A stretch of 64,000 nt of DNA, taken from assembly GCA_964362205.1 (NCBI GenBank), contig CAYIDA010000005.1:1-64000 (forward strand). The letters are read 5' to 3'. The notes under the pieces were generated by a model. The model worked only from the letters and a program-made list of their open reading frames with translations, made no database searches and was not told the DNA's origin. Origin of the DNA: an uncultured Gammaproteobacteria bacterium. GTDB lineage: Bacteria > Patescibacteriota > Patescibacteriia > UBA11705 > JABHMO01. Positions 4,295 through 52,887 of this stretch are shown piece after piece (position 1 is the first letter of the stretch; every line of letters starts with the position of its first letter). The position numbers and the translations under genes are program-made.

Positions 4295-4914
4295 AAGGTA
4301 TCTGTGTTGTGTGCGGTCTTGAAAAGACTGTTTACAAAAACAGAAAAACCGGCAAGCAGACTTGTCATAGTTGCAGTGAGAGAGCTCGTTTCCACGCTGT
4401 TTCCAGTCACGAGAAATGTTTCAAGTGTGGTGAGATTAAAGCAGTGCATTCTCGCGATAAGAATAATCGGGCTGTCTGCAACGTTTGCTATTATCGTCAT
4501 TTTGTTAGCCGTGAAAAGTGCCGGCAATGTGGCAGGGTTCAAAAAGTGTATTCACGGAATGAAGCAGGGCAGCCTGTTTGCCGCAATTGTTTTAATCATG
4601 ATTCTTCTAATCACGAGAAGTGTTGCCAGTGCGGTCAGCTTAAAATAGTGCATGGACGGAGCGAATCCAATCAACCCATTTGCAACAGCTGTTATCGCAA
4701 AAATCCATCCACCCACGAAAAGTGCATCAAGTGCGACCAGGTAAAACGGGTATGTGTAAGGCATGAACTTGGCGCCATCTGCGAGAACTGTCGAGGCCAA
4801 GATCCCTCAACACACGAAGAATGCATCAAGTGCGGTCGAGTCAGACGGGTAAACAGCAGAGATAAGTCCGGTCGAGCTATTTGCCCTGCGTGTAATCAAA
4901 AAAGCAAGTGCTAA
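4291..4914 (+). CDS. Second tandem zinc-ribbon array protein (6 HEKC.KCG...C..C units)
   Basis: The frame has the same repeat architecture. A likely GTG start at 4291 lies after GGAAAGGAAGG and overlaps the upstream stop by 4 nt (GTGA). Alternative ATGs at 4231 and 4258 are in frame. Confidence 0.6.
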   Translation: MKGICVVCGLEKTVYKNRKTGKQTCHSCSERARFHAVSSHEKCFKCGEIKAVHSRDKNNRAVCNVCYYRHFVSREKCRQCGRVQKVYSRNEAGQPVCRNCFNHDSSNHEKCCQCGQLKIVHGRSESNQPICNSCYRKNPSTHEKCIKCDQVKRVCVRHELGAICENCRGQDPSTHEECIKCGRVRRVNSRDKSGRAICPACNQKSKC

Positions 4915-5012
4915 TATCAACGGTCCCAGTCATAAAAGGTTGGGACTTTTTCATTTTTTAAAAATCGTATTATGTGGTATAATAAACATTGAAGTAAAAT
5001 TAAAGCATTAAT

Positions 5013-5249
5013 ATGTTTTTAAGAATTTTGATCGGAATAGTCATGTGCGTAGTCGGATTTTTTATGGTCAAAAAACCGGACGCCGCACTTCGGGCAATCG
5101 GCCAGGTGGACTTCGCGGAAAAATTTTTCAGCGGCGGCAGTTATACTTTTTTTCAGATATTCGGCGTGGTTTTGGTTATGCTCGGTTTTGCCATAATTCT
5201 GAATTTGCATCTACTACTGCTCGGCAAATTCTATAATTTGTTTTTTTAA
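5013..5249 (+). CDS. Small hydrophobic (2-TM) hypothetical protein
   Basis: 78-aa ORF with two hydrophobic stretches. No homology recognised. Confidence 0.35.
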   Translation: MFLRILIGIVMCVVGFFMVKKPDAALRAIGQVDFAEKFFSGGSYTFFQIFGVVLVMLGFAIILNLHLLLLGKFYNLFF

Positions 5250-5803: not shown

Positions 5804-6139
5804 ATGTCAGAAGAAACACAGCAATTAAGCTCCAAGGACGTGTCGGACAATAAAGTAATCTCCGCCATCGGTTATATCGGCGTACTGTGCTTGATTCCGC
5901 TTTTGTTAAAAAAAGATAGCAAGTTCGCGCAGTTTCACGCCAAGCAGGGATTGGTTTTGTTTATCGCGGAAATCATGGTTTCTTTTGTGAATATTGTTCC
6001 ATTGCTTGGACAAATTGTTTGGTTTTTCGCCGGTTTAGTTTTTTTGGTGATGTCAGTGATTGGTTTACTGAAAGCCTGGAAAGGCGAGTGGTGGAAAATA
6101 CCGTATCTGCATGAATACGCGGAAAAAATTAATATTTAA
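5804..6139 (+). CDS. Small membrane protein (DUF4870-like, FHAKQG motif)
   Basis: 111 aa with two TM segments and a 'FAQFHAKQGLVLF' motif. Confidence 0.6.
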   Translation: MSEETQQLSSKDVSDNKVISAIGYIGVLCLIPLLLKKDSKFAQFHAKQGLVLFIAEIMVSFVNIVPLLGQIVWFFAGLVFLVMSVIGLLKAWKGEWWKIPYLHEYAEKINI

Positions 6140-6149
6140 GTTGTAAGGA

Positions 6150-6423
6150 TTGACAGCGTTGTATATAGTTTAATCTATAGATTCAATGAATATTCCGACA
6201 AATTGGTTTATCGCAGTTCTCCGAAGGGTTACTTTTTGACGCCCTGCACCAGTCGCTACGCCTGCCTGCGCGGCAGGGCTCCGGTGCAGGGCAAGCCAAA
6301 AGAGTTCACCTTTACCGTGAATTCGACGAAGGAGTGGTTTACGGCCAGACCCCGTGAAATGCAATGTAATCACGATAAACTATTAAATAAGTGGTTTCAT
6401 TATAAAACGTAAACAACGTTGGC
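6150..6423 (+). repeat. ~250-bp TIR-flanked structured element, copy A (candidate ncRNA or MITE). It is paralogous to 24520-24772 on the opposite strand.
   Basis: GC-rich island in AT-rich DNA. The ends AGCGTTGTATATAG (left) and AAACAACGTT (right) form an inverted repeat. The conserved 5' block is aatctatagattcaatgaatattccgacaaattggtttatcgc and the conserved 3' block is ccagaccccgtgaaatgcaatgtaatcac. The internal 9-bp stem is ccctgcacc...ggtgcaggg. Two six-frame ORFs called here are rejected as compositional artefacts. Confidence 0.6.
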
Positions 6424-6434
6424 AAATCTAATAT

Positions 6435-7880
6435 TTGATTATGGAAAATTTAAAACGAACAAAAATTGTTTGCACGCTGGGGCCGACTTCTGACAAGAAA
6501 CCGATTATCAAGCGTTTGATCAAAGCAGGCATGAATGTCAGCCGGCTTAATTTTTCGCACAATGTTCACTCTTATCATTTGAAAGTAATGAAGATGGTGA
6601 GGGCGGCGGCTATGGAATGCGCTGAACCGGTTGCAATTCTTCAAGATTTGCAAGGTCCGCGGATTAGATTGGGCGAATTGTCGGAAACTGGAATTAATCT
6701 GAAAAATAAAAGCCGTGTAATATTGACTACGGCTGATTCGACGGATGGGAAAAAGATTCCAGTGACTTACAAAAAAATGCATGAAGACGTTAAGGCTGGA
6801 GAAAGAATTTTGATTAGCGATGGTTTGATCGAGTTAAAAGTAAAAAGCGTTCAAAAAAAAGATATTATCTGCGTGGTGATAAACGGCGGTAAAATTTTTT
6901 CTCATAAAGGCATTAATTTGCCCGATACCAATGTTCGAATCGAGGCCTTGTCCGAGAAAGATAAAGAAGACCTGTTGTTTGGTGTGAAAAATAAAGTTGA
7001 TTTTGTGGCCTTGTCGTTTGTGAGAACCGCGAAAGATATTTATAATCTTAGAAAATTAATAGAGAAATATGAACGCCAACTAAAAATCAAAGCAACGTCG
7101 CCGATCAGAATTATCGCGAAAATAGAGCGGCGCGAGGCGATTGAAAACATAGACGAGATTTTGGCGTCGGCCGATGGTTTAATGGTGGCGCGCGGGGATC
7201 TTGGAATTGAAATGCCGGCTGAAGAGATTCCTTTGCTCCAAAAAATGTTGATTGACAAATGTTTGCACGCGGCCAAGCCAGTGATCGTGGCCACGCAAAT
7301 GTTGGAGTCCATGATCAATAATCCGCGACCGACCAGAGCCGAGGTTTCAGACGTGGCTAACGCCGTGATTGATCACACTGACGCGATCATGCTTTCCGGC
7401 GAAACGGCCAATGGGAAATTTCCGGTTGAGGCAGTGGAATATATGACGAAAATCGCGATCAATACGGAAAAATCAACTTATGATGATTTTGTTCTGCAGG
7501 AAAAAGTGAATCAAATTACTCCGGCGAATGACGCGGTGGCCGGCGTAGCCAAAGTTTTGACCGAGCAAGCAAATGTTAAATTAATTTTAGTTGCCTCATT
7601 GTCCGGGCATTCCGGCCGCGTGGTGAGCCGTTATCGGCCGGAAAAACCCATCTATGTTGCTTGCGATGAGCATCGGGTCGAACGTCAACTGAATTTGAAC
7701 TGGGGACTCAAACCGTTTGTTTTGCCCGCTTGTCAAACGATAAACAGCTTCATTGATCAGGCAACAAATTATTTGAAAAGGAAAAAAGTTGTTAAAAAAA
7801 ATGATCGAATCACGATTGTGTCCGGCATCACCATGGGGAAGTCGGGGACAACAGATTTTATAGAAATAAAAAAAATATAA
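6435..7880 (+). CDS. pyk: Pyruvate kinase
   Basis: N-terminus KIVCTLGPTSDKK...MNVSRLNFSHN and the MVARGDLGIEMP signature. The 481-aa length is consistent with pyruvate kinase. Confidence 0.95.
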   Translation: MIMENLKRTKIVCTLGPTSDKKPIIKRLIKAGMNVSRLNFSHNVHSYHLKVMKMVRAAAMECAEPVAILQDLQGPRIRLGELSETGINLKNKSRVILTTADSTDGKKIPVTYKKMHEDVKAGERILISDGLIELKVKSVQKKDIICVVINGGKIFSHKGINLPDTNVRIEALSEKDKEDLLFGVKNKVDFVALSFVRTAKDIYNLRKLIEKYERQLKIKATSPIRIIAKIERREAIENIDEILASADGLMVARGDLGIEMPAEEIPLLQKMLIDKCLHAAKPVIVATQMLESMINNPRPTRAEVSDVANAVIDHTDAIMLSGETANGKFPVEAVEYMTKIAINTEKSTYDDFVLQEKVNQITPANDAVAGVAKVLTEQANVKLILVASLSGHSGRVVSRYRPEKPIYVACDEHRVERQLNLNWGLKPFVLPACQTINSFIDQATNYLKRKKVVKKNDRITIVSGITMGKSGTTDFIEIKKI

Positions 7881-22429: not shown

Positions 22430-22463
22430 GTTGCATTTATCTGTAGATTTGGTAAGCTATTAA

Positions 22464-22603
22464 GGGCTACAAATTACAAATCGTACAAATGTTACAAATT
22501 ACGAATTGTACGAATGTAATGTTGTGAATGGATTTGAAGTGGATTGGTAAGATTTGTATTATCTGTAATTTGTAACATTTGTACGATTTGTAATGTGTAA
22601 CGA
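22464..22603. repeat. Inverted-repeat leader (family F2: gctacaaattacaaatcgtacaaat words), copy a
   Basis: Left arm gggctacaaattacaaatcgtacaaatgttacaaattacgaattgtacgaatgtaatg. Right arm ttgtattatctgtaatttgtaacatttgtacgatttgtaatgtgtaacg. Confidence 0.75.
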
Positions 22604-22642: not shown

Positions 22643-23788
22643 ATGTATTTAAGAAAACACCCGGGAGTAACAGAGGGTTATAAAAAAATGATTTTAGGTT
22701 TTGTTATCGTGACGGTACTGCTCGTCGGCGTGATTATTTATTTTTCCGCCAGCCGAGCGGTCATCGGAATCGTGCCAAAAGGGAAAACAGTGGAAACTGA
22801 TTTTGTGGCTGATGTCGCGACCGATGGCGGAGGAAATCAAGCAGAAGTTTTTCAGGGCGTGTTAAAAGAAATGGAACTTGTGGGAGAGCTCGAGGGTGAC
22901 GCGACCGGTTCGCAGATTTTGAATGGCAATACGATCGGCAAAGTGACTTTGTTCAATAAACGACCTGAAGCGCAAACTTTAGTGAAGACCACGCGTCTTC
23001 TAAGCAAGGACAATGTTTTATTACGATTGACGAATCAAGTGGTGATTCCGGCGAATGGCCAGATCGAAGCTGATGTTTACGCTGATAATCCTAATTCTTT
23101 TCAGGAAATGGCGCCCACCTCTTTTATTATCCCAGGACTTTGGGAGGGGATTCAAGATAAGGTTTATGCTCAAAACAAGAGCGCTTTGAAAAGTACAGGC
23201 ACGGCCGTGAAAGTGGTCAAGGACGTTGACATCACCCGCGTTGAAGAAGAACTCACGAACAAATTGTATGATCAAGCGATTGAACAATTTAAGAAACAAG
23301 CGCCGGATCAGAATTTCGTGACGTTTGTTGTTTCTAAAAAAGTTATTGAGAAGCAGGTGGTGCCGGCAGCGGAAACCGTGCAGGACAAAGTTAAAGTTTC
23401 TTTGAAAGTGAGCGTTGCTCTCGTGGCCATCAATCAAAATGAAATTGTTAATAAGGCTGGTGAGCGTCTTAAGGGCGTGGTGCCGACCGGTTATGATCTC
23501 ATGAATCTTGATGTTGATAAATTTGTTTACACTGTGCAAGCGTTTGATGAGCAAAAGAAAACCGCGAACGTTAAAGTTCATGTCATTGGTGAGGCGGTTG
23601 TCAAAGCGGACAATGAAATTTTCAATAAAGACAAAATCGCCGGTTTAAGTCCGAAAGGCGTTGAACTTTATTTATCAAATTTTGAAGAAGTTGAAGCAGT
23701 CAGCGTGGAATTATCGCCATTCTGGGTAAAAAAAGTGCCGGGTTTGCGCGATCATATTGAAATCGTGGTAGTGAGTCCGTCGAAGTAG
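22643..23788 (+). CDS. Membrane-anchored hypothetical protein
   Basis: 381-aa ORF with an N-terminal TM segment. No recognised domain. Confidence 0.75.
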   Translation: MYLRKHPGVTEGYKKMILGFVIVTVLLVGVIIYFSASRAVIGIVPKGKTVETDFVADVATDGGGNQAEVFQGVLKEMELVGELEGDATGSQILNGNTIGKVTLFNKRPEAQTLVKTTRLLSKDNVLLRLTNQVVIPANGQIEADVYADNPNSFQEMAPTSFIIPGLWEGIQDKVYAQNKSALKSTGTAVKVVKDVDITRVEEELTNKLYDQAIEQFKKQAPDQNFVTFVVSKKVIEKQVVPAAETVQDKVKVSLKVSVALVAINQNEIVNKAGERLKGVVPTGYDLMNLDVDKFVYTVQAFDEQKKTANVKVHVIGEAVVKADNEIFNKDKIAGLSPKGVELYLSNFEEVEAVSVELSPFWVKKVPGLRDHIEIVVVSPSK

Positions 23789-23811
23789 TGTTACAATTTA
23801 AACATAATTAT

Positions 23812-24036
23812 ATGAAAAATCTACACTTAACAAGCTACATAGAAAAAGACGAAGATGGTGTGTTTATTGGATCTATACCGGCTATTCCCAGTTGCTATGC
23901 TCAAGGAAAAACTCAAGAAGAAATGCTGAAAAATTTAAATGAGGTTTTACGGCTTTGCCTGCGAAACACCAGTCAAGGAAATTTGAGGAGAACCAAATTT
24001 ATAGGCATACAGAATATAGAAATTTCCTATGCCTAA
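23812..24036 (+). CDS. hicB: HicB-family (UPF0150) antitoxin
   Basis: LTSYIEKDEDGVFIGSIPAIPSCYAQGKTQEEMLKNLNEVLRLCL matches the UPF0150/HicB pattern. The ORF opens at GTG 23788. The first ATG is at 23812. Confidence 0.7.
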   Translation: MKNLHLTSYIEKDEDGVFIGSIPAIPSCYAQGKTQEEMLKNLNEVLRLCLRNTSQGNLRRTKFIGIQNIEISYA

Positions 24037-24253
24037 ATTGGTTCCAATTAAACCAAAAAGGTTAATAAAAATCATACTCGGTTTAGGCTTCAGACAACGT
24101 GATGCCGAAGGCTCGCATATTTTTTTTCGCCATCTCGACGGTCGAACCACGGTTATTCCAATACATGCTAACGAAATCAGCAGAGGTCTTTTGAGAAAAA
24201 TTTTGAACGATGTTCAGTTGTCAATTGAGGAATACGATGTCCTGAGAAAATAA
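24029..24253 (+). CDS. hicA: HicA-family mRNA interferase toxin
   Basis: MPKLVPIKPKRLIKIILGLGFRQRDAEGSHIFFRHLDGRTTVIPIH is the HicA/YcfA fold. It overlaps hicB by 8 nt. Confidence 0.75.
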   Translation: MPKLVPIKPKRLIKIILGLGFRQRDAEGSHIFFRHLDGRTTVIPIHANEISRGLLRKILNDVQLSIEEYDVLRK

Positions 24254-24463
24254 GTTATGGTTTATTGCGATGCGTGTTATTGACGAAGAAATATATTTTT
24301 AGTACAATTAAAGTGTTCAAGAAATTGGGTCAGCTACCAACTGATTAACCGTCCACCTTCGCATAAAGCTCCGGTGGATCGGTTGAACCAATGTTTTGAT
24401 GAATTAAGAGCTCTGGAATCTGATTTTCCGGAGAACTTGGGTGGGACCCCCCGCAATTTGTGG

Positions 24464-24497
24464 GGCCCAAGGCATAGAGCCTTGGGTTTTTGTTTTA
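24464..24497 (+). terminator. Rho-independent terminator on the + strand
   Basis: Stem cccaaggc / gccttggg with loop atag, followed by tttttgtttt. It lies ~210 nt after the hicA stop. Confidence 0.7.
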
Positions 24498-24519
24498 ATA
24501 ACAAGCTGTTAGAAACGAG

Positions 24520-24772
24520 AGCGTTGTATACATTTTTACCCTTTAACACTCTTATTTGATTTACGGTGATTACGTTGCATTTCACGGGGTCTGGGGTGAA
24601 CTCTTGCCACTTTCAGCACCACGAAAGATGATAGAACCACGCAATTGTGAACCCCAGCGCTTTTGCCTACTTTTGGCGTCAAAAGTAGGTCTGCGAAGCA
24701 TCGCGATAAACTAATTTGTTGGGATATTCATTGAATCCATAGATTAAACTGTAAACAACGCTACCAATTCTT
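24520..24772 (-). repeat. ~250-bp TIR-flanked structured element, copy B (paralogue of 6150-6423; minus-strand orientation)
   Basis: The reverse complement aligns with copy A. Both 5' blocks read agtttaatctat(a/g)gattcaatgaatat(t/c)cc(g/a)acaaatt(g/a)gtttatcgc. Both 3' blocks read ccagaccccgtgaaatgcaa(t/c)gtaatcac. They share ttttgacgcc and agagttcacc. The TIRs are AGCGTTGTATACAT and GTAAACAACGCT. Confidence 0.6.
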
Positions 24773-24791
24773 ACAAATAAGTCTTAATTTT

Positions 24792-26591
24792 ATGAACAAC
24801 AATTTAGAAACAATGCGTCATTCACTTAGCCACGTCATGGCGCAGGCAGTGCTTAAATTTTTTCCTGATGTGAAATTAACGATCGGCCCCCCGATTGACA
24901 ATGGCTTTTATTATGATTTTGATTTAGGCGAAAAATCTTTTACGAAAGATGATTTGAAAAGAATTGAAAAAGAGATGAGAAAAATTGTCAGAGAAGATCA
25001 AGCGTTTGAACAGTTTTCGTTGTCAGCAGAAGAAGCGCTCAAAAAACTGGCGGATAATCCGTATAAACAAGAATTGATCGAAGAGCTTGTTAAACAAGGA
25101 GAAACTCAAATTAGTTTTTACAAAAACATCAACAAACAAGGCGAAATTGTTTTTGAAGATATGTGCCGCGGACCGCACCTTGAATCAACGGGCGGGGCTG
25201 GCGCGTTTAAACTGCACAAACTGGCCGGCGCGTATTGGCGCGGAGATGAGAAAAATAAAATGTTGCAAAGAATATACGCCCTGGCGTTTGAAACCGAGGA
25301 AGAGATTGAAAAATATTTGATTCTGCTCGCGGAAGCGGAAAAAAGAGACCACCGCGTCATCGGCAAAGACTTGTTTTTGCTTGATCCGCAAGTTGGCATG
25401 GGTCTCGCCATGTGGAAACCAAAAGGCGGCCAACTTTGGCGCACGATTGAAGATTTTTGGTATAAAGCGCATCTTGATAACGGTTATGAACTGGTTCGTT
25501 CTCCGCATATCGGCAGCCGCGCTTTGTGGGAGACGAGCGGCCACTGGAATTTTTACAATGACAGCATGTATCCGGTGCTTGAAGTCAGTAAATCACTCAA
25601 AGAAATGCAGACCGGCGCAGTGGTTGATCGCCCGAAAGAAGAGTATTTATTAAAACCAATGAACTGCCCGTTCCATGTTCGGCTTTATAAATCAGAGAAA
25701 TGGTCATATCGCGATTTGCCATTGCGCTGGGCGGAATGCGGCACGGTTTATCGTTACGAAAAGTCCGGCGAATTGTCGGGACTAACTCGCGTGCGCGGAT
25801 TTACGCAGGATGACGCGCATATCATTTGTTCAAAAAAACAAGTTGAAGAAGAATTGAAACGCGTGGCCAATTTCGTTAAATATATTTTTGATACGTTCGG
25901 TTTCAAGGATTATAAAATTTATTTATCCCTTAGTGATCCGAACAATATGAGTAAATATGCCGGCGACAAAGAGGGTTGGCAGTTTACAGAAACGGTTTTA
26001 GAAAAGGTGGCCAAGGAATTGGGCATTCCTTATGAAAAAGAAATCGGCGAAGCGGCGTTTTACGGACCGAAACTGGATTATAAAGTGAAAGACGCGCTGG
26101 GGCGCGAGTGGCAATGTTCTACTTTGCAGTTTGATTTTAATTTGCCGGAACGTTTTGATATGACTTTCACCAATGATGAGGGACAAGAAGAACGGCCATA
26201 CATGTTGCATCGAGCTTTGTTTGGTTCGTTTGAAAGATTCATGGGATTGCTGATTGAACATTACAGCGCGGCTTTTCCACTGTGGCTTTCGCCGGTGCAA
26301 GTAAAAGTCTTGTCGGTTTCGGAAAAATTCAATGATTATGCCAGTGAAGTGGTGTCTGCTCTCAAAAAGAAAAGCATCAGGGTTAAGTTGGCTGATGATG
26401 GCGATTCATTACCCAAGAAAGTTCGCAACGGAGAAAAAGAAAAAATTCCTTATCTTTTAGTTGTTGGAGAAAAGGAAGTCGCTGATAGAACGGTCGCGGT
26501 CAGAAAACGCGGTCAAGGCGATCTTGGACCGCAAATATTGGCTGATTTCGTTGAGCTTGTTTCACGAGAAAACGAAGAGCGAGTAATTTAA
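24792..26591 (+). CDS. thrS: Threonyl-tRNA synthetase
   Basis: N-terminal HSLSHVMAQAV (second additional domain), class II core and anticodon-binding domain. 599 aa. Confidence 0.95.
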   Translation: MNNNLETMRHSLSHVMAQAVLKFFPDVKLTIGPPIDNGFYYDFDLGEKSFTKDDLKRIEKEMRKIVREDQAFEQFSLSAEEALKKLADNPYKQELIEELVKQGETQISFYKNINKQGEIVFEDMCRGPHLESTGGAGAFKLHKLAGAYWRGDEKNKMLQRIYALAFETEEEIEKYLILLAEAEKRDHRVIGKDLFLLDPQVGMGLAMWKPKGGQLWRTIEDFWYKAHLDNGYELVRSPHIGSRALWETSGHWNFYNDSMYPVLEVSKSLKEMQTGAVVDRPKEEYLLKPMNCPFHVRLYKSEKWSYRDLPLRWAECGTVYRYEKSGELSGLTRVRGFTQDDAHIICSKKQVEEELKRVANFVKYIFDTFGFKDYKIYLSLSDPNNMSKYAGDKEGWQFTETVLEKVAKELGIPYEKEIGEAAFYGPKLDYKVKDALGREWQCSTLQFDFNLPERFDMTFTNDEGQEERPYMLHRALFGSFERFMGLLIEHYSAAFPLWLSPVQVKVLSVSEKFNDYASEVVSALKKKSIRVKLADDGDSLPKKVRNGEKEKIPYLLVVGEKEVADRTVAVRKRGQGDLGPQILADFVELVSRENEERVI

Positions 26592-30019: not shown

Positions 30020-30166
30020 GGCTACAAATCATGGCTACATATTACAAATCACTACGAATTTACGAATAGAACTAAAACGTATGAAGAGCGAAACGAAAGA
30101 ACAGTCTAAACCGATTTGCCTGCCCGCGCAGGCGGGTAAATTTGTAGTGATTTGTAATTTGTAGCA
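30020..30166. repeat. F2 inverted-repeat leader, copy b. It forms a perfect long hairpin and ends 5 nt before the ATG at 30172.
   Basis: Left arm ggctacaaatcatggctacatattacaaatcactacgaattt. Right arm aaatttgtagtgatttgtaatttgtagcaaac. The centre contains the gcccgcgcaggcggg hairpin. Confidence 0.75.
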
Positions 30167-30171
30167 AACAT

Positions 30172-30747
30172 ATGCAGGAAAAAATAGTTTTCGCGCCATA
30201 TGATCGCATAGTAAAGTTTTTTTTACCGATCATTCCGAAAAAGCTAAAACCGAATCAGCTGACTTTTTTCAGGTTGATATGTTCGCCGTTACTTATCGGA
30301 CTTTTGGAAACAAAAGAATATACGATTGCTTTGATTTTTTTTGCGATTTTGGCGATAACGGACATGCTGGACGGCTCGCTCGCGCGGCTACGCAATCAAG
30401 TCACGGAATGGGGAAAAATTTGGGATCCGATCGCGGATAAATTGTTGATTGGTACAGTGGTCGTGGTTTTGTTACTTAAAATAAACTTGAGTTTAACGAT
30501 TTTTCTTTTGGCTTTTGAATTGGCTTTTGTGCTCGGCGGCGCGTTCCATAAAATCGGGGAAAACGGCAATCACGCCTTGCAGGCCAATATGTGGGGCAAA
30601 ATAAAAATGAATTTACATTGTTTTGGCGCGGGGCTCTTGATTCTGGGGGTTATTATGGATCACAACATGCTGACCTTTGTCGCCGAAATTTTATTTTATC
30701 TCAGCTTGTTGTTCGCGGCCGTAAGTTTAATTAAACGCGGCGTGTAG
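30172..30747 (+). CDS. CDP-alcohol phosphatidyltransferase family protein
   Basis: DMLDGSLARLRNQVTEWGKIWDPIADK (D-x2-DG-x2-AR...G-x3-D-x3-D motif) and TM segments. Confidence 0.8.
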   Translation: MQEKIVFAPYDRIVKFFLPIIPKKLKPNQLTFFRLICSPLLIGLLETKEYTIALIFFAILAITDMLDGSLARLRNQVTEWGKIWDPIADKLLIGTVVVVLLLKINLSLTIFLLAFELAFVLGGAFHKIGENGNHALQANMWGKIKMNLHCFGAGLLILGVIMDHNMLTFVAEILFYLSLLFAAVSLIKRGV

Positions 30748-30890
30748 GTTAGTTGATAATTAACCTAATTATTCTAATTATTTTAATTGACCTAAATAAT
30801 AGCCAAATAACAATAACCAAAAACTATTTTATGTTTGGGATTTCGGAATTCGAAATTATTTAGAATAATTAGAACAATTAGGTCAATTAT
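30748..30890. repeat. AT-rich inverted-repeat leader (family F4: taattagg / cctaatta words), copy b
   Basis: Left arm ttgataattaacctaattattctaattattttaattgacctaaataat. Right arm ttagaataattagaacaattaggtcaattatcg. Sister copy at 251-400. Confidence 0.65.
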
Positions 30891-34657: not shown

Positions 34658-34763
34658 TCGTATTAAACAACCTTGTCTTTCTTAAAGACAGGGTTTTTTG
34701 TTTTAATCGTAGTTATTTAGTGTGAGTTTGCTTCGAGGTTTTCCTGAAGGAAAGTTTGAACAG

Positions 34764-34880
34764 GGAAGGTTGAGGAGGTCAGGAGATCGGCGAAGCCGAC
34801 AAGCCGTTAAGGTTTCTAAAATCCTGTTCATGTCGGAATAGGGTTGGGCATGGGCGGTAAGATGTTTTTGTTTATAAAAC
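34764..34880 (+). repeat. GC-rich structured element family F5, diverged copy 1
   Basis: Begins GGAAGGTTGAGGAGGTC and ends tgtttataaaac. GC-rich in an AT-rich intergenic region. Confidence 0.55.
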
Positions 34881-34894
34881 GTTTAGAGTATAGT

Positions 34895-35074
34895 TCAGCT
34901 GATTTTTTTGTTTAAAAATGGAAGGTTGAGGAGGTCGATAGACCGACGAAACCGACCGCCCGTCAGGGCATCTCAACCCCCTCCACGTCGGAACGGGGAG
35001 GGGGCAGGCTTGCCCAGTACTTGCGCGAAGCAAATAGTGCTGGGGGGTGGGGCGCAGTCCATGTTTATAACACT
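34895..35074 (+). repeat. GC-rich structured element family F5, copy 2 (candidate ncRNA or leader upstream of rfbB)
   Basis: Nearly identical to 52696-52887 over ~170 nt: ggaaggttgagg(a/g)agtcgatagaccgacgaaaccgaccgcccgtcagggca...ggcaggcttgcccagtacttgcgcga(a/t)gcaaatagtgctggggggtgggg. Internal hairpin ttgc-gcgaa-gcaa. A six-frame ORF called here is rejected. Confidence 0.6.
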
Positions 35075-35164: not shown

Positions 35165-36211
35165 ATGAAATTACTCGTAACCGGCGGTGCCGGTTTTATC
35201 GGTTCAAATTTCATTCGGCATATTTTGAATAAATATCCGTACTATTTTGTTATTAATCTTGATAAACTGACTTACGCCGGCAATTTGGACAATTTGAAAC
35301 AGTTTGAGAGTCATCCGAATTACAAATTCGTTAAAGGAGATATTCTGAACTCAGAATTAATTGAGCATGTCGCGGCTGATGTTGATATTATTGTTCACTT
35401 TGCCGCTGAGACGCACGTTGATCGTTCGGTTCTTGATCCGTTTTCTTTTGTGAAAACCAATGTCCTCGGCACGCACGTTCTGCTTGAAGCCGCGAGAAAA
35501 TTAGGCAACAAAAGATTTCATCATATTTCCACTGACGAAGTTTTCGGTTCTTTGCCGCTTGAGGATACGCATCGTTCATTTCACGAAGAAACGCCGTATG
35601 ATCCGAAGAGTCCGTATTCATCATCAAAAGCCGCGTCCGATCATTTGGTTCGGGCGTATTATCACACTTATGGTTTGCCGATTACGATTTCCAATTGTTC
35701 AAATAATTATGGACAGTTTCAATTTCCGGAAAAAGTGATTCCGCTTTTCATTACCAATTTACTGGAAGGGAAAAAAGTGCCGCTTTACGGAGATGGAAAA
35801 AATGTACGTGATTGGATTCACGTGGAGGATCATTGCGAAGCAGTGGACGCGATTATTCACAAAGGAAAAATCGGCCATACTTATGTTGTTGGCGCTGATT
35901 GCGAGAAAACAAATTATGAATTGACCATGACGATTTTGAAACATTTGGGACATGGCGAAGAAATGATTGAATTTGTGAAAGACCGTCCGGGCCATGATCG
36001 CCGCTATGCTATGCGTTCGCACAAAATTCAGGCAGAACTCGGCTGGAAACCGAAATACAATTTTGAAGATGGTATGCGCCAAACCATTGATTGGTATGTG
36101 GCAAACAAAGATTGGTGGCAGAAAGTGAAGTCAGGGGAGTATTTGAAATATTATGACGAGTGGTACGGAAGTCGGCTACAAATTACGAATCGTACAAATG
36201 TTACAAATTGA
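35165..36211 (+). CDS. rfbB: dTDP-glucose 4,6-dehydratase
   Basis: MKLLVTGGAGFIGSNF... SDR-family with YxxxK. 348 aa. The last ~12 codons are encoded by the left arm of an F2 repeat. Confidence 0.95.
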   Translation: MKLLVTGGAGFIGSNFIRHILNKYPYYFVINLDKLTYAGNLDNLKQFESHPNYKFVKGDILNSELIEHVAADVDIIVHFAAETHVDRSVLDPFSFVKTNVLGTHVLLEAARKLGNKRFHHISTDEVFGSLPLEDTHRSFHEETPYDPKSPYSSSKAASDHLVRAYYHTYGLPITISNCSNNYGQFQFPEKVIPLFITNLLEGKKVPLYGDGKNVRDWIHVEDHCEAVDAIIHKGKIGHTYVVGADCEKTNYELTMTILKHLGHGEEMIEFVKDRPGHDRRYAMRSHKIQAELGWKPKYNFEDGMRQTIDWYVANKDWWQKVKSGEYLKYYDEWYGSRLQITNRTNVTN

Positions 36212-42578: not shown

Positions 42579-42881
42579 ATGAATCCACAGGAAATAATCA
42601 ACGAGAACATTATTGCTGCTTTGGGTCTGCAATCATTGCCCCTTGAAAAGAAGCAGGAGGTTTTGAACAAATTGGTTGAATTGGTGCAAAAAAGAATTAT
42701 GCTCCGAGTTATGGACGGTTTGTCAAAAGAGGATGGCGAGAAAATGGCTGAACTCGAAAAAAATCCAATGGCCATGCTGGCGTTTATCGCGGAAAAGTTT
42801 CCGAATTTTGAGGAAATCGTGAAAGAAGAAGTTGAAAAAGTAAAAGAAGAAGCGCTGGCTGCGGCTGAACAAGTCAATTAA
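42579..42881 (+). CDS. Small acidic hypothetical protein
   Basis: 100-aa ORF. The stop is immediately followed by an F2 repeat. Confidence 0.55.
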   Translation: MNPQEIINENIIAALGLQSLPLEKKQEVLNKLVELVQKRIMLRVMDGLSKEDGEKMAELEKNPMAMLAFIAEKFPNFEEIVKEEVEKVKEEALAAAEQVN

Positions 42882-42993
42882 TGGCTACAAATTACAAATC
42901 ACTACAAATTTACAAATAGACAAAAGAATGTATGAACAAAAGAACAGTCTAAACAGATTTGTAAATTTGTAGTGATTTGTAATTTGTAGCAAC
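42882..42993. repeat. F2 inverted-repeat leader, copy d (perfect long hairpin), ending 1 nt before the ATG at 42995
   Basis: tggctacaaattacaaatcactacaaattt ... aaatttgtagtgatttgtaatttgtagcaac. Confidence 0.75.
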
Positions 42994-42994
42994 T

Positions 42995-43180
42995 ATGAGC
43001 ACAGACACAAAAAAGCAAGAGTTGATCGCCAAGATGCGGCTGGCTTATGATGAGTTCGTTAAATATGTTGAAGCGCTTGAAAAAGAGGGTGATGTTTTGT
43101 TGCATCAGCATATTCAGAAGATTGAAAAAGAAAAGATTGATCAAGTGTTAAAAAATATTCAAAATATCGGCTCAAAATAA
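42995..43180 (+). CDS. Small coiled-coil hypothetical protein
   Basis: 61-aa ORF. It has the same start-codon context (F2 right arm 'tttgtagcaa' then ATG) as two recognisable genes (CDP-alcohol phosphatidyltransferase at 30172 and pyrG at 50965). That raises its plausibility. Confidence 0.5.
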   Translation: MSTDTKKQELIAKMRLAYDEFVKYVEALEKEGDVLLHQHIQKIEKEKIDQVLKNIQNIGSK

Positions 43181-50463: not shown

Positions 50464-50910
50464 ATGAAAATTCTCTTGATTAAACACTTAGAATCATTAG
50501 GCCGCAGAGGAGAAATAAAAAATGTCGCAGAAGGTTACGCGAGAAATTTTTTATTGCCGGGGAAATTTGCGGTGGTGGCCAATGAAGCGAATGTAAAGAA
50601 ATATGCTAATATCGAAAATCAGGTTGAATCGAAACAGGTTAATAAAAAATTAAAAACTCCGGAGGAAATCGCGGCGCGGCTTCGCACGATATCAATCGTG
50701 TTGGCGGAAAAAGCGGATGACAGTGGAACGTTATTCGCCGGCCTTACCAAAGAAAAACTGGTTCAATTGCTCGCGGCCAAAGGCATTGATTTAAAAACAA
50801 AACAAATTGATTTGGCGGAACCAATAAAGAAGATCGGTGATTATAGAATCGGAGTGAATATCAGCGCCAGTTTCAAAAGTGAATTTCGGGTTTCAATAAA
50901 AAAAAATTAA
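50464..50910 (+). CDS. rplI: 50S ribosomal protein L9
   Basis: MKILLIKHLESLGRRGEIKNVAEGYARNFLLP matches the L9 N-domain. 148 aa. Confidence 0.9.
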   Translation: MKILLIKHLESLGRRGEIKNVAEGYARNFLLPGKFAVVANEANVKKYANIENQVESKQVNKKLKTPEEIAARLRTISIVLAEKADDSGTLFAGLTKEKLVQLLAAKGIDLKTKQIDLAEPIKKIGDYRIGVNISASFKSEFRVSIKKN

Positions 50911-50964
50911 AATTTGTATAATTCGTAATTTGTAACATTTGTACGATTTGTAATTTGTAGCAAT
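50911..50964. repeat. F2 half-element (right-arm type only) filling the rplI-pyrG spacer, ending 0 nt before the pyrG ATG
   Basis: aatttgtataattcgtaatttgtaacatttgtacgatttgtaatttgtagcaat then ATG. Confidence 0.7.
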
Positions 50965-52611
50965 ATGTGCAAGTTTATTTTCGTGGTCGGCGGAGTGATG
51001 AGCGGTGTTGGCAAAGGAGTGGCCGCTGCTTCCATCGGCCGGATTTTGCAGAGCAAAGGCTATCGCGTTTCCGCGATTAAGATTGACCCATATATCAATA
51101 TTGACGCCGGCACCATGAATCCCACGGAGCACGGCGAAGTTTTTGTCACAGAGGATGGAGATGAGACTGATCAAGATATTGGCAACTATGAACGCTTTCT
51201 AAATCAGAATATATATTCCGATAACTACATGACCACCGGCCGAGTTTACCAAACAGTAATCGAGCGCGAAAGAAATCTCGGCTATCATGGAAAATGCGTG
51301 GAGGTGGTGCCGCATATTCCCGAGGAAATTATTCGTCGCATAAATAACGCGGCCAAGAAGAGCGACGCTGAAATAATGATGGTGGAAATCGGCGGCACGG
51401 TCGGTGAATATCAAAACCTGTTATTTTTGGAGGCAGCGCGCATGATGAAGATGCAGAATTTTCATGATGTGCTTTTTATTTTGGTTTCTTTTTTGCCGGT
51501 GCCGGGAAAATTGGGAGAAATGAAAACCAAACCAACGCAATATGCGATTCGCACTTTGAATTCCGCCGGCATTCAAGCTGACTTTGTCCTGTGCCGCGCC
51601 GAGCAAGCGATTGACAAAGAACGTAAACAAAAAATTGCCGTGAATGGCGGTTTGTTTCCGGATCATATTATATCCGCGCCGGACGTTGATTCTATTTATG
51701 ATATTCCGGTTAATTTTGAAGCAGAACATTTGGGTGAAAAGATTTTGAAACAATTCGGTTGGAGCCCGCGTCAGATCGGCGGACTTGAGGAATGGAAAGA
51801 GTTCGTGATGAAAAGCAAATCAGCGCAGAAAATAGTTAAAATCGGTATCTGCGGAAAATATTTTAAAACCGGTGATTTTGTTTTAAAGGATTCATACATT
51901 TCTGTGATTGAGGCGATCAAACACGCGGCCGGCGTAAATGATGTTAAGACGGAAATACAATGGCTGAACGCAGAAGTTTACGAAGAAGACGCTTCAAAAC
52001 TGAGAGAGTTGTCACAGTTTGACGGAGTGATTGTGCCGGGCGGTTTTGGCGGACGGGGGGTGGAAGGAAAAATTAATGCTATTCGTTATTTGCGAGAGAA
52101 TAAAATTCCATTTTTCGGGCTTTGCTACGGATTGCAATTAGCGACGATTGAATTTGCCAGGAATGTTTGCGGATTAACGGACGCGACTTCTGAAGAAATC
52201 AATTCGAGCGCCAGTCATCAAGTGATTCATATCATGCCTGACCAAATTCAAAATATTGATCAGAAGAAATACGGCGCGACCATGCGTCTCGGCGCCTACC
52301 CCTGTGTTCTCGACGAGCGTTCGATTTGTTATCAGGCATATGGCGAAAAACAAATATCCGAGCGCCACCGCCACCGCTATGAAGTTAACAATTATTATCG
52401 CGATTTAATGGAACAAAAAGGATTGATGTTTGCCGGCTTGTCGCCTGATCGGCGTTTGGTGGAAGCGATTGAATTGCCCGGACATCCGTTTTTCGTGGCC
52501 ACGCAATTTCATCCTGAATTTAAATCAAGACCAATTGTCGGGCACCCGCTATTTAATGCGTTTATTAAAGTTTGCCTTAATAAATATGAACGAGAATTTA
52601 ATAGTAGATAA
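50965..52611 (+). CDS. pyrG: CTP synthase
   Basis: MCKFIFVVGGVMSGVGKGV... synthetase domain plus a GATase-1 domain (GLCYGLQ). 548 aa. Confidence 0.95.
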   Translation: MCKFIFVVGGVMSGVGKGVAAASIGRILQSKGYRVSAIKIDPYINIDAGTMNPTEHGEVFVTEDGDETDQDIGNYERFLNQNIYSDNYMTTGRVYQTVIERERNLGYHGKCVEVVPHIPEEIIRRINNAAKKSDAEIMMVEIGGTVGEYQNLLFLEAARMMKMQNFHDVLFILVSFLPVPGKLGEMKTKPTQYAIRTLNSAGIQADFVLCRAEQAIDKERKQKIAVNGGLFPDHIISAPDVDSIYDIPVNFEAEHLGEKILKQFGWSPRQIGGLEEWKEFVMKSKSAQKIVKIGICGKYFKTGDFVLKDSYISVIEAIKHAAGVNDVKTEIQWLNAEVYEEDASKLRELSQFDGVIVPGGFGGRGVEGKINAIRYLRENKIPFFGLCYGLQLATIEFARNVCGLTDATSEEINSSASHQVIHIMPDQIQNIDQKKYGATMRLGAYPCVLDERSICYQAYGEKQISERHRHRYEVNNYYRDLMEQKGLMFAGLSPDRRLVEAIELPGHPFFVATQFHPEFKSRPIVGHPLFNAFIKVCLNKYEREFNSR

Positions 52612-52695: not shown

Positions 52696-52887
52696 TTTTT
52701 TTGTTTTAAAATAGAAGGTTGAGGGAGTCGATAGACCGACGAAACCGACCGCCCGTCAGGGCACCTCAAACCCCCTCCACGTCGCCCTTCGAGTACCTCA
52801 GGGTGACAGGAGGAGGGGGCAGGCTTGCCCAGTACTTGCGCGATGCAAATAGTGCTGGGGGGTGGGGTGCGGTCTTGGTTATAAAAG
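52696..52887 (+). repeat. GC-rich structured element family F5, copy 3
   Basis: Close paralogue of 34895-35074, including the shared upstream gatttttttgtttaaaa(t/a)(g/t)(g/a) context. A six-frame ORF called here is rejected. Confidence 0.6.

Follow-up and report, generated by a model that had tools for sequence, protein, structure and literature searches.

What fills the 538 nt that separate hicA (which ends at 24253) from the threonyl-tRNA synthetase gene thrS (which starts at 24792) in the 64,000-nt stretch of DNA analysed here, referred to below in its whole length as the window? The interval has two parts, a plus-strand unit at 24280-24496 and a minus-strand repeat at 24776-24506. The former is a T-box leader for the thrS gene that follows, and the interval as a whole is very probably this leader together with an unrelated mobile repeat that inserted behind it. 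A first-pass annotation of the sequence had described a discrete RNA with a terminator on the plus strand and, behind it, one copy of a dispersed element in the opposite orientation, and both are present where it had placed them. The parts of the leader and the gene that it controls are as follows.

~24315-24496 (+): leader RNA of thrS, ~180 nt, of the T-box transcription-attenuation type
24280-24308 (+): sigma-70-type promoter, TTGACG, 17-nt spacer, TACAAT, matching the consensus at 10 of 12 positions
24323-24346 (+): decoding module, AAUUG (the counterpart of a conserved GAUUG) and a short Stem I of 6 bp, GGUCAG/CUGAUU
24336-24338 (+): specifier ACC, followed by A, within the 7-nt apical loop CUACCAA of Stem I
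24347-24392 (+): variable hairpin AACCG...CGGUU, lengthened in the window by UCCACC/GGUGGA, and then the CCAA(U/G) motif of the RNCYAAG box
24406-24433 (+): AAGAG (RAG) motif and Stem III, CUCUGGAA / UUCCGGAG, with Stem III itself at 24411-24433
24436-24471 (+): antiterminator with helix A1 (CUUGGG/CCCAAG), the 7-nt T-box bulge UGGGACC (24442-24448) and helix A2 (CCCCGC/GUGGGG)
24466-24496 (+): intrinsic terminator, stem CCCAAGGC/GCCUUGGG, then the U-run UUUUUGUUUU
24792-26591 (+): thrS, encoding a threonyl-tRNA synthetase (ThrRS) of 599 aa that lacks the N-terminal TGS domain

The 3' half of the leader shows the typical T-box arrangement. A purine-AG motif stands ahead of Stem III, a 7-nt bulge of the form UGGNACC separates helices A1 and A2, and GGGUGGAACC was found in 14 of 14 related loci scanned. 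The 5' arm of the terminator includes the 3' strand of helix A1 (CCCAAG), so that antiterminator and terminator are mutually exclusive. In the 5' half, the specifier is a codon for the amino acid of the enzyme and is followed by a purine, as in all 16 leaders of thrS or dtd-thrS that we compared. The two strings which had been called pieces of tRNA arms are real and acquire a meaning here: tcagctaccaactga at 24330-24344 is the specifier hairpin, an anticodon-arm look-alike that displays the threonine codon ACC, while ggtggatcggttgaacc at 24374-24390 is the 3' half of the next hairpin. The terminator reported after hicA was likewise found, with a stem of 12 pairs at 24462-24490 and a T-run that extends to 24496. 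The segment had also been described as GC-rich and free of open reading frames (ORFs). It is GC-rich in relation to its flanks (42-49% versus ~30-37% G+C) but not in absolute terms, and mechanical ORFs of 41-83 aa do cross it, although none of them is credible.

To what extent are these parts conserved? Leaders were gathered from 80 thrS loci of metagenomes and from loci fetched via individual proteins, which gave 16 distinct leaders, all from Patescibacteria and located upstream of thrS or of a dtd-thrS pair; pair counts and folds were based on 14 of them. The comparison was made by regular-expression searches and pair counting rather than with a covariance model of the full leader. The leaders share one order of parts: a near-consensus promoter, GAUUG, a 6-bp hairpin with the loop YYACCAR and one or two plain hairpins of variable length are followed by the RNCYAAG motif, a linker, AAG(U/A)G with Stem III, the T-box bulge, helix A2 and the terminator. 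By our own reading of the sequences the promoter lies ~14-24 nt upstream of GAUUG in most related leaders. GAUUG is invariant except for AAUUG in the window, L007 and L074, and for L029, where the 5' motif is divergent and the loop has 9 nt. The variable hairpin differs in length even between the window and L007, its closest relative (ThrRS 89% identical), and the CCAA(U/G) motif behind it occurs in every aligned leader.

The loop YYACCAR is present in the 16 leaders, with ACC and the following A always kept, while the stem below it varies freely (UCAG/CUGA, AUCGG/CCGAU, GUUGG/CCAAC, GCUAU/AUAGC, CCUGG/CCGGG). Among the 14 leaders counted, all six pairs of the specifier hairpin have changed on both sides and 92.8% of the cells are paired. 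In Stem III all eight pairs have changed on both sides, the outer four being paired in 98% and the inner four in 65% of cells. For the two helices taken together 86.9% of the cells are paired, compared with 65.6% after shuffling and 27-51% when the partners are slid, and 14 of 14 pairs change on both sides. The GAUUG and CYAAG motifs could pair with each other over 3-4 bp, and both vary too little for covariation to be seen. A second candidate for the threonine codon, GAACCAA or AACUAAG after the second hairpin, was dropped as specifier: L015 reads GCUAAG at this place. The leaders of this group thus combine a conserved architecture, covarying helices, a codon that matches the gene and two mutually exclusive folds, and the T-box that joins a short Stem I to a terminator, an unusual combination, is widespread in this clade of Patescibacteria.

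Two further observations were made on the related leaders. In L011, L016, L019, L023, L024 and L040 the T-box leader is followed by dtd, which encodes a D-aminoacyl-tRNA deacylase, and then by thrS; the switch of these relatives appears to govern an operon of two genes. Inserts of 130-200 nt, GC-rich and unrelated to the repeat of the window, stand between the terminator and the thrS start codon in L009 (3823-4000) and L015 (991-1115), and in L040 (4119-4250) an insert of ~140 nt splits the specifier hairpin from the other leader parts. Insertions seem to occur readily in the leader region.

With permissive settings, an Rfam scan of 24100-24900 returned one meaningful match, the T-box family RF00230 at 24194-24472, with 32.5 bits and E = 2.3e-5. 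The alignment is good over the 3' half, comprising Stem III, the T-box sequence and the antiterminator. Its 5' half cannot be right because the "Stem I" that it assigns falls on hicA and on the TTGACG-17-TACAAT promoter. According to the first-pass annotation a match to a known housekeeping RNA would have spoken against its reading; a match to a known RNA exists, but with a score below the gathering score it does so only in a weak form. At the gathering threshold the window yields tRNA-Gln only and the 14 related loci yield nothing, and tRNA-Gln was also the sole tRNA or tmRNA that ARAGORN found in the window. Neither the window nor any of 40 scanned loci yielded a gene for tRNA-Thr. The earlier statement that no housekeeping RNA (tmRNA, RNase P or SRP RNA) fits the segment holds: for these and for 6S RNA there was no Rfam match in 24100-24900 or 6050-6500 at E up to 10, nor in the whole window at E up to 0.05. 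When full leaders were folded the terminator formed. Upon removal of its 3' arm most of the 14 leaders (9 by our own count) folded into the canonical arrangement of A1, 7-nt bulge and A2, and the leader of the window gave a shifted variant of the antiterminator.

It might be thought that the plus-strand segment is a free-standing terminated small RNA or the 3' untranslated region of the operon in front of it, with no relation to thrS; a locus rich in small RNAs was what the first-pass annotation had suggested. The operon in question is a toxin-antitoxin pair:

23788-24253 (+): hicB-hicA, with hicB in the ORF 23788-24036 (likely start codon ATG at 23812) and hicA at 24029-24253

Both genes are supported by Pfam matches (HicA_toxin, 52.2 bits; UPF0150/HicB-like, 31 and 22.8 bits, for the ORF upstream of hicA). 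The segment does lie directly behind hicA, and its strong terminator stands ~295 nt ahead of thrS. However, the segment has a promoter of its own downstream of the hicA stop codon, and it carries the T-box sequence, the alternative of antiterminator and terminator, and the threonine codon. Moreover, the same leader is kept directly upstream of thrS in L007. There the order is dnaE, a gene of 381 aa, the leader and thrS, with neither hicBA nor the repeat; the T-box promoter follows directly on the 381-aa gene, and the U-run of the terminator ends ~24 nt ahead of the thrS start codon. The gap of 295 nt in the window is so long because the element was inserted. We therefore regard a small RNA or 3' untranslated region as very improbable. 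Nothing links the region to hicBA functionally either; the toxin-antitoxin pair is a neighbour of the leader, not a component, and since it is lacking at the syntenic site of this sister genome it also looks like a lineage-specific insertion.

Homologues of the downstream gene product are named threonine--tRNA ligase and contain the domains tRNA_SAD, tRNA-synt_2b and HGTP_anticodon. The closest homologues of this ThrRS and of the pyruvate kinase encoded in the window are all from Patescibacteria, and the window comes from a Parcubacteria-like genome of this group.

Since the gene is thrS, one may ask whether the hairpin is instead an operator of the kind found upstream of thrS in Escherichia coli, where a mimic of the tRNA-Thr anticodon arm is bound by ThrRS for feedback control of translation. 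The two have in common an anticodon-arm-shaped hairpin upstream of thrS, and the likeness extends to details: UCAG-CUACCAA-CUGA has a 7-nt loop in which a U stands at the equivalent of tRNA position 33 and the triplet is followed by a purine. However, the loop displays the codon ACC and not a threonine anticodon (GGU, UGU or CGU), and it does so in 16 of 16 leaders. It is also joined to a full T-box discriminator domain and a terminator, and the E. coli operator is not known to have either. An operator of this type is hardly credible here.

As a T-box, the leader resembles the attenuating members of RF00230, such as those of Bacillus subtilis thrS, tyrS and glyQS, in its position ahead of a co-oriented aminoacyl-tRNA synthetase gene, in the RAG motif with Stem III, in the 7-nt UGGNACC bulge between A1 and A2, in a terminator that shares a strand with the antiterminator, and in a specifier that fits the amino acid of the enzyme and precedes a purine. 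It differs from them in its host, a member of the Patescibacteria, in a score well below the family threshold, and above all in its 5' half. The ACC hairpin is the first structure of the transcript, and there is no room for a long Stem I because the -10 box lies only a short distance upstream. A long Stem I with kink-turn (K-turn), specifier internal loop, AG bulge and the distal loop that docks on the tRNA elbow is thus missing, and the specifier is located in an apical 7-nt loop rather than in an internal loop.

That a short Stem I can carry its specifier in the apical loop has been documented (PMC7583486). The T-boxes with short or "ultrashort" Stem I upstream of actinobacterial ileS genes (Sherwood et al. 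2015, as outlined in PMC7583486) are, so far as that outline goes, like the leaders described here in this respect (here a stem of 6 bp and a loop of 7 nt), in the absence of an elbow-binding platform and in insertions into helix A2, which are large in L009, L020, L023 and L040. In the same outline the actinobacterial leaders control translation, for which they sequester the ribosome binding site, and make use of a Stem II S-turn and a IIA/B pseudoknot, whereas here there is an intrinsic terminator, only one or two plain variable hairpins and the CYAAG motif come after Stem I, and no S-turn is evident. Sequestration of the ribosome binding site is not what the present leaders are built for; all of them end in a GC-rich hairpin and a U-run. 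No AGUA/GAA S-turn was seen, and CUGAUUA behind the specifier hairpin resembles an F-box, to which Rfam aligns it. Glycine T-boxes, too, lack the Stem II S-turn and the pseudoknot with its F-box.

Several points weigh against assigning the leader to the T-box class. Its 32.5 bits compare with a gathering score of 93 for RF00230, and none of 15 leaders tested (the window and 14 loci) reaches this threshold; the best relatives score 41.6 and 40.7 bits, and at E < 0.01 only 2 of 7 were reported. No K-turn, elbow-binding distal platform or Stem II S-turn was found in the leader, and according to a review T-boxes that terminate transcription generally require a long Stem I. The T-box bulge reads UGGG, where 14 of 14 related loci read UGGA, although G and A could both pair with U73. 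All the leaders precede thrS, so that codon and gene are matched for one synthetase. Finally, the Rfam alignment assigns the ACC hairpin to Stem IIA rather than to Stem I. We rejected this placement because the decoding element would then be missing altogether; it stays on as a formal alternative.

By analogy with the known mechanism of T-boxes we infer tRNA binding and read-through as follows. The promoter would drive synthesis of a leader RNA of ~180 nt that senses uncharged tRNA-Thr. The anticodon of the tRNA, predicted to be GGU, would pair with ACC in the apical loop of the 6-bp Stem I, and its free 3' NCCA end with UGGG of the T-box bulge, by which the antiterminator would be stabilised. 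RNA polymerase could then pass the terminator and proceed into thrS. With charged tRNA, the terminator would form and transcription would stop.

The second part of the interval, the repeat on the minus strand, raises a question of its own: what is an unrelated sequence doing between a leader and its gene? The window contains two full copies.

24506-24776 (-): copy B, 271 nt, in opposite orientation to thrS, with terminal inverted repeats (TIRs) at 24507-24536 and 24746-24775
24501-24505 and 24777-24781: ACAAG and ATAAG, candidate 5-bp target duplications at the ends of copy B
6141-6434 (+): copy A, 294 nt, between a DUF4870 gene and pyk, just upstream of pyk

Copies A and B are 77% identical; the alignment extends over ~300 nt and places copy B against 6132-6446 (+), in agreement with the earlier description of a dispersed element, and the ttggta box noted in copy B is present at 24766-24761. 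Two conserved blocks of 25-28 nt within the repeat had 0 matches in shuffled sequences. An exact-word scan of species-representative genomes revealed five more copies, all in H51-bin326_1, a metagenome-assembled genome (MAG) of the Patescibacteria. By a profile search we then found a sixth copy and an adjacent terminal fragment in this genome and, at another locus of L007, a diverged copy, which brings the total to 10 copies or fragments, spread over three closely related genomes of the Patescibacteria. The repeat was absent from metagenome contigs (exact word, 0 matches) and from viral contigs (35 chance matches, 0 confirmed by nhmmer). The copies are intergenic and occur in either orientation to their neighbours, with no transposase nearby. 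The central hairpins are unequal in length and define subtypes. In a related MAG two copies (L006:3409-3690 and 4907-5217) flank a dinB-like gene and are both oriented against it; one of them has its 5' end 6 nt from the dinB start codon, much like copy B with its 16 nt to the start of thrS.

Two simple interpretations were rejected. The repeat is not a protein gene: because of indels the copies differ in reading frame, and there is no credible ORF. Nor is it a leader or riboswitch of pyk, as other copies are antisense to or downstream of their neighbours.

The evidence for mobility comes from the ends of the repeat and from the comparison of occupied and empty sites. Each full copy has imperfect TIRs (TTGTAA...TTACAA) that begin with TTGTAA. 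The TIRs are 77% complementary over 30 nt in copy B, 74% over 23 nt in copy A, 73% over 30 nt in L007 and 74% over 19 nt in L006b. In L007 the site at thrS is empty, and removal of copy B together with one of the flanking pentamers ACAAG/ATAAG leaves a spacer of 26 nt in the window that can be aligned with the 25-nt spacer of L007. The site at pyk is empty in L128 and L129, where the DUF4870 gene abuts or overlaps pyk. Flanking repeats of 5 bp are exact at L005 (ATCAA) and L006b (ATTAC) and agree in 4 of 5 positions at copy B. The repeat is a mobile, non-coding insertion resembling a miniature inverted-repeat transposable element (MITE), and a target duplication of 5 bp is likely rather than established. 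Termini of the TG type and a short duplication are typical of DDE transposases, as in the IS3 and IS481 families, Mu and Tn7, and judging by the ends of the repeat its transposition was probably carried out by a DDE-type enzyme supplied in trans. Antisense regulation of the locus, which the first-pass annotation had considered possible, is not supported; the same unit is inserted in either orientation at unrelated loci.

Small MITE-like intergenic repeats are familiar from other bacteria: Correia/NEMIS in Neisseria, ERIC/IRU in enterobacteria, RUP and BOX in the pneumococcus. Like these, the repeat is short (270-295 bp), non-coding, present in several copies, equipped with TIRs and found near gene ends in either orientation; it shares with them size variants of internal segments and is likely to be transcribed together with its neighbours and to fold into hairpins. 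It differs from them in a core that is far richer in G+C than the host, in internal blocks that are better kept than the ends, in a target duplication that is not firmly established and in a range that so far comprises three closely related genomes. We know of no sequence similarity to any of these families.

The 5-bp duplication is not equally clear at all sites, agreeing in only 3 of 5 positions at copy A and in L007 and failing at L006a, where a 12-nt repeat is offset from the end. This weighs against an insertion of MITE type, as do several other observations. The best-conserved blocks of the repeat are internal and not terminal. Neither the window nor the fetched loci showed an autonomous parent element, and no search aimed at such ends flanking a gene was made. 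Furthermore, three internal hairpins of copy B differ from those of L002 and L006b by compensatory changes (GGUUAC.../...GUAACC versus CCUAC.../...GUAGG; CCGGGG/CCCCGG versus CUGGGG/CCCCAG; GUUCG/CGAAC versus CUUUC/GAAAG). In these sequences such changes suggest selection on a folded strand rather than a passive MITE. Which strand would fold is not evident, as the folding z-scores are -1.2 and -1.8 for the sense strand of the element and -2.5 and -3.8 for the opposite strand.

Could each copy of the repeat then be a small gene for a structured RNA that has a promoter to itself (TTGTAA, 17-nt spacer, TAYAGT), with the inverted ends serving as a processing stem? Under such a reading copy B would be transcribed towards the terminator of the T-box and might act antisense to the thrS leader. 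The core is indeed GC-rich and hairpin-rich, exceeding its surroundings in G+C within an AT-rich genome. Its helices vary in length and sequence, including the three with compensatory changes just described, and a long-range UGAUUAU/GUAAUCA pairing is kept via wobble changes in L006b and L007. Copy A has promoter-like hexamers at its 5' end, and by eye a similar pair is visible in copy B. However, in 4 of 7 copies this site is degenerate, and it falls far short of the T-box promoters that these genomes have; the core is not followed by a terminator, and there is no Rfam match. Neither strand stands out: which of them the wobble pairs favour depends on the helix, fold energies of the two strands are nearly equal in the one alignable subtype, and as single sequences the opposite strand folds better. 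RNAalifold found no common fold over all subtypes. The empty sites and flanking repeats, moreover, show that the unit moves as DNA with its inverted ends included. We consider a family of RNA genes rather unlikely, and retain the mobile insertion as the explanation of the repeat.

A further observation concerns the ends. Intergenic palindromes built of ~9-nt TTTGTAAnn units are located at 22457-22600, 30022-30177, 36166-36211, 42875-43001 and 50908-50984; the pattern had 10 matches where 1.4 were expected, and the unit resembles the TTGTAA termini of the repeat.

Does the insertion of 271 nt between leader and gene mean that the T-box has become a relic, uncoupled from thrS and decaying, with the gene now expressed from a promoter inside the element or at its edge? 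The UGGG bulge, which departs from all 14 related loci, might be taken as a sign of decay, and by eye a weak site facing thrS can be found at ~24720-24749 (TTGTTG, 18-nt spacer, TAGATT). However, the bulge G is still able to pair with a U at the discriminator position, and the sole promoter-like site that the scan found inside the element is weak as well (24604-24632, TTGCCA-17-GATGAT, 9 of 12 matches). The leader itself is intact, and its helices, Stem III among them, differ from those of L007 by compensatory changes; on these grounds it is likely still in use. Transcripts that read through the T-box would have to cross the repeat before thrS and would carry the antisense strand of the element in their 5' untranslated region. 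In such transcripts the 30-nt inverted ends might form a processing site, and a weak promoter at the edge of the element might contribute to thrS expression. There is no plus-strand terminator-like site within copy B, and T-box read-through can therefore plausibly reach thrS. A relic is an unlikely explanation, and we prefer a leader that would continue to act on its gene across the inserted element.

Other features of the window were recorded in passing. A second GC-rich repeat family, with two copies 92-95% identical over ~140 nt and a weaker partial copy (34747-35059 and 52696-52874), had no Rfam match at E up to 0.05. The segment 54489-54902 (+) matches the cspA thermoregulator (RF01766) below threshold, with 63.1 bits (gathering score 78; E = 1.4e-13). 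An AT-rich repeat of 59-66 nt with 79-83% identity occurs in direct and inverted arrangement at 333-399 and 30758-30889.

For the family of repeats, the finding adds a newly described and lineage-restricted group with two clean pairs of filled and empty sites; the literature library searched contained no paper on MITEs in the candidate phyla radiation (CPR). At the locus itself a riboswitch has been parted from its gene by a mobile insertion, which evidently is tolerated. For the T-box family, we found in the same library no paper that joins T-boxes with CPR, Patescibacteria or Parcubacteria, and the authors of TBDB looked for the short class in Actinobacteria only (PMC7778990). As it lies far below the Rfam threshold, the present class of leaders is unannotated, and amino-acid-responsive control of thrS and dtd-thrS in Patescibacteria has probably been overlooked.

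A more far-reaching proposal, possible but doubtful in its entirety, is that the thrS leaders of Patescibacteria form a minimal class of transcription-terminating T-boxes and that, in addition, the GC-rich core of the repeat is functional as a folded RNA or a single DNA strand. A minimal class of this kind may decode the tRNA by an anticodon-arm-like hairpin alone, with the codon in a 7-nt apical loop and with neither an elbow platform nor an S-turn. If true, it would contradict the view that terminator-type T-boxes need a long Stem I for fast capture of the tRNA. A terminator-type T-box whose specifier sits in nothing more than an apical loop puts to the test the smallest amount of RNA that can capture a tRNA in the time that transcription allows, and such minimal capture may be of consequence where genomes are tiny and transcription is possibly slow.

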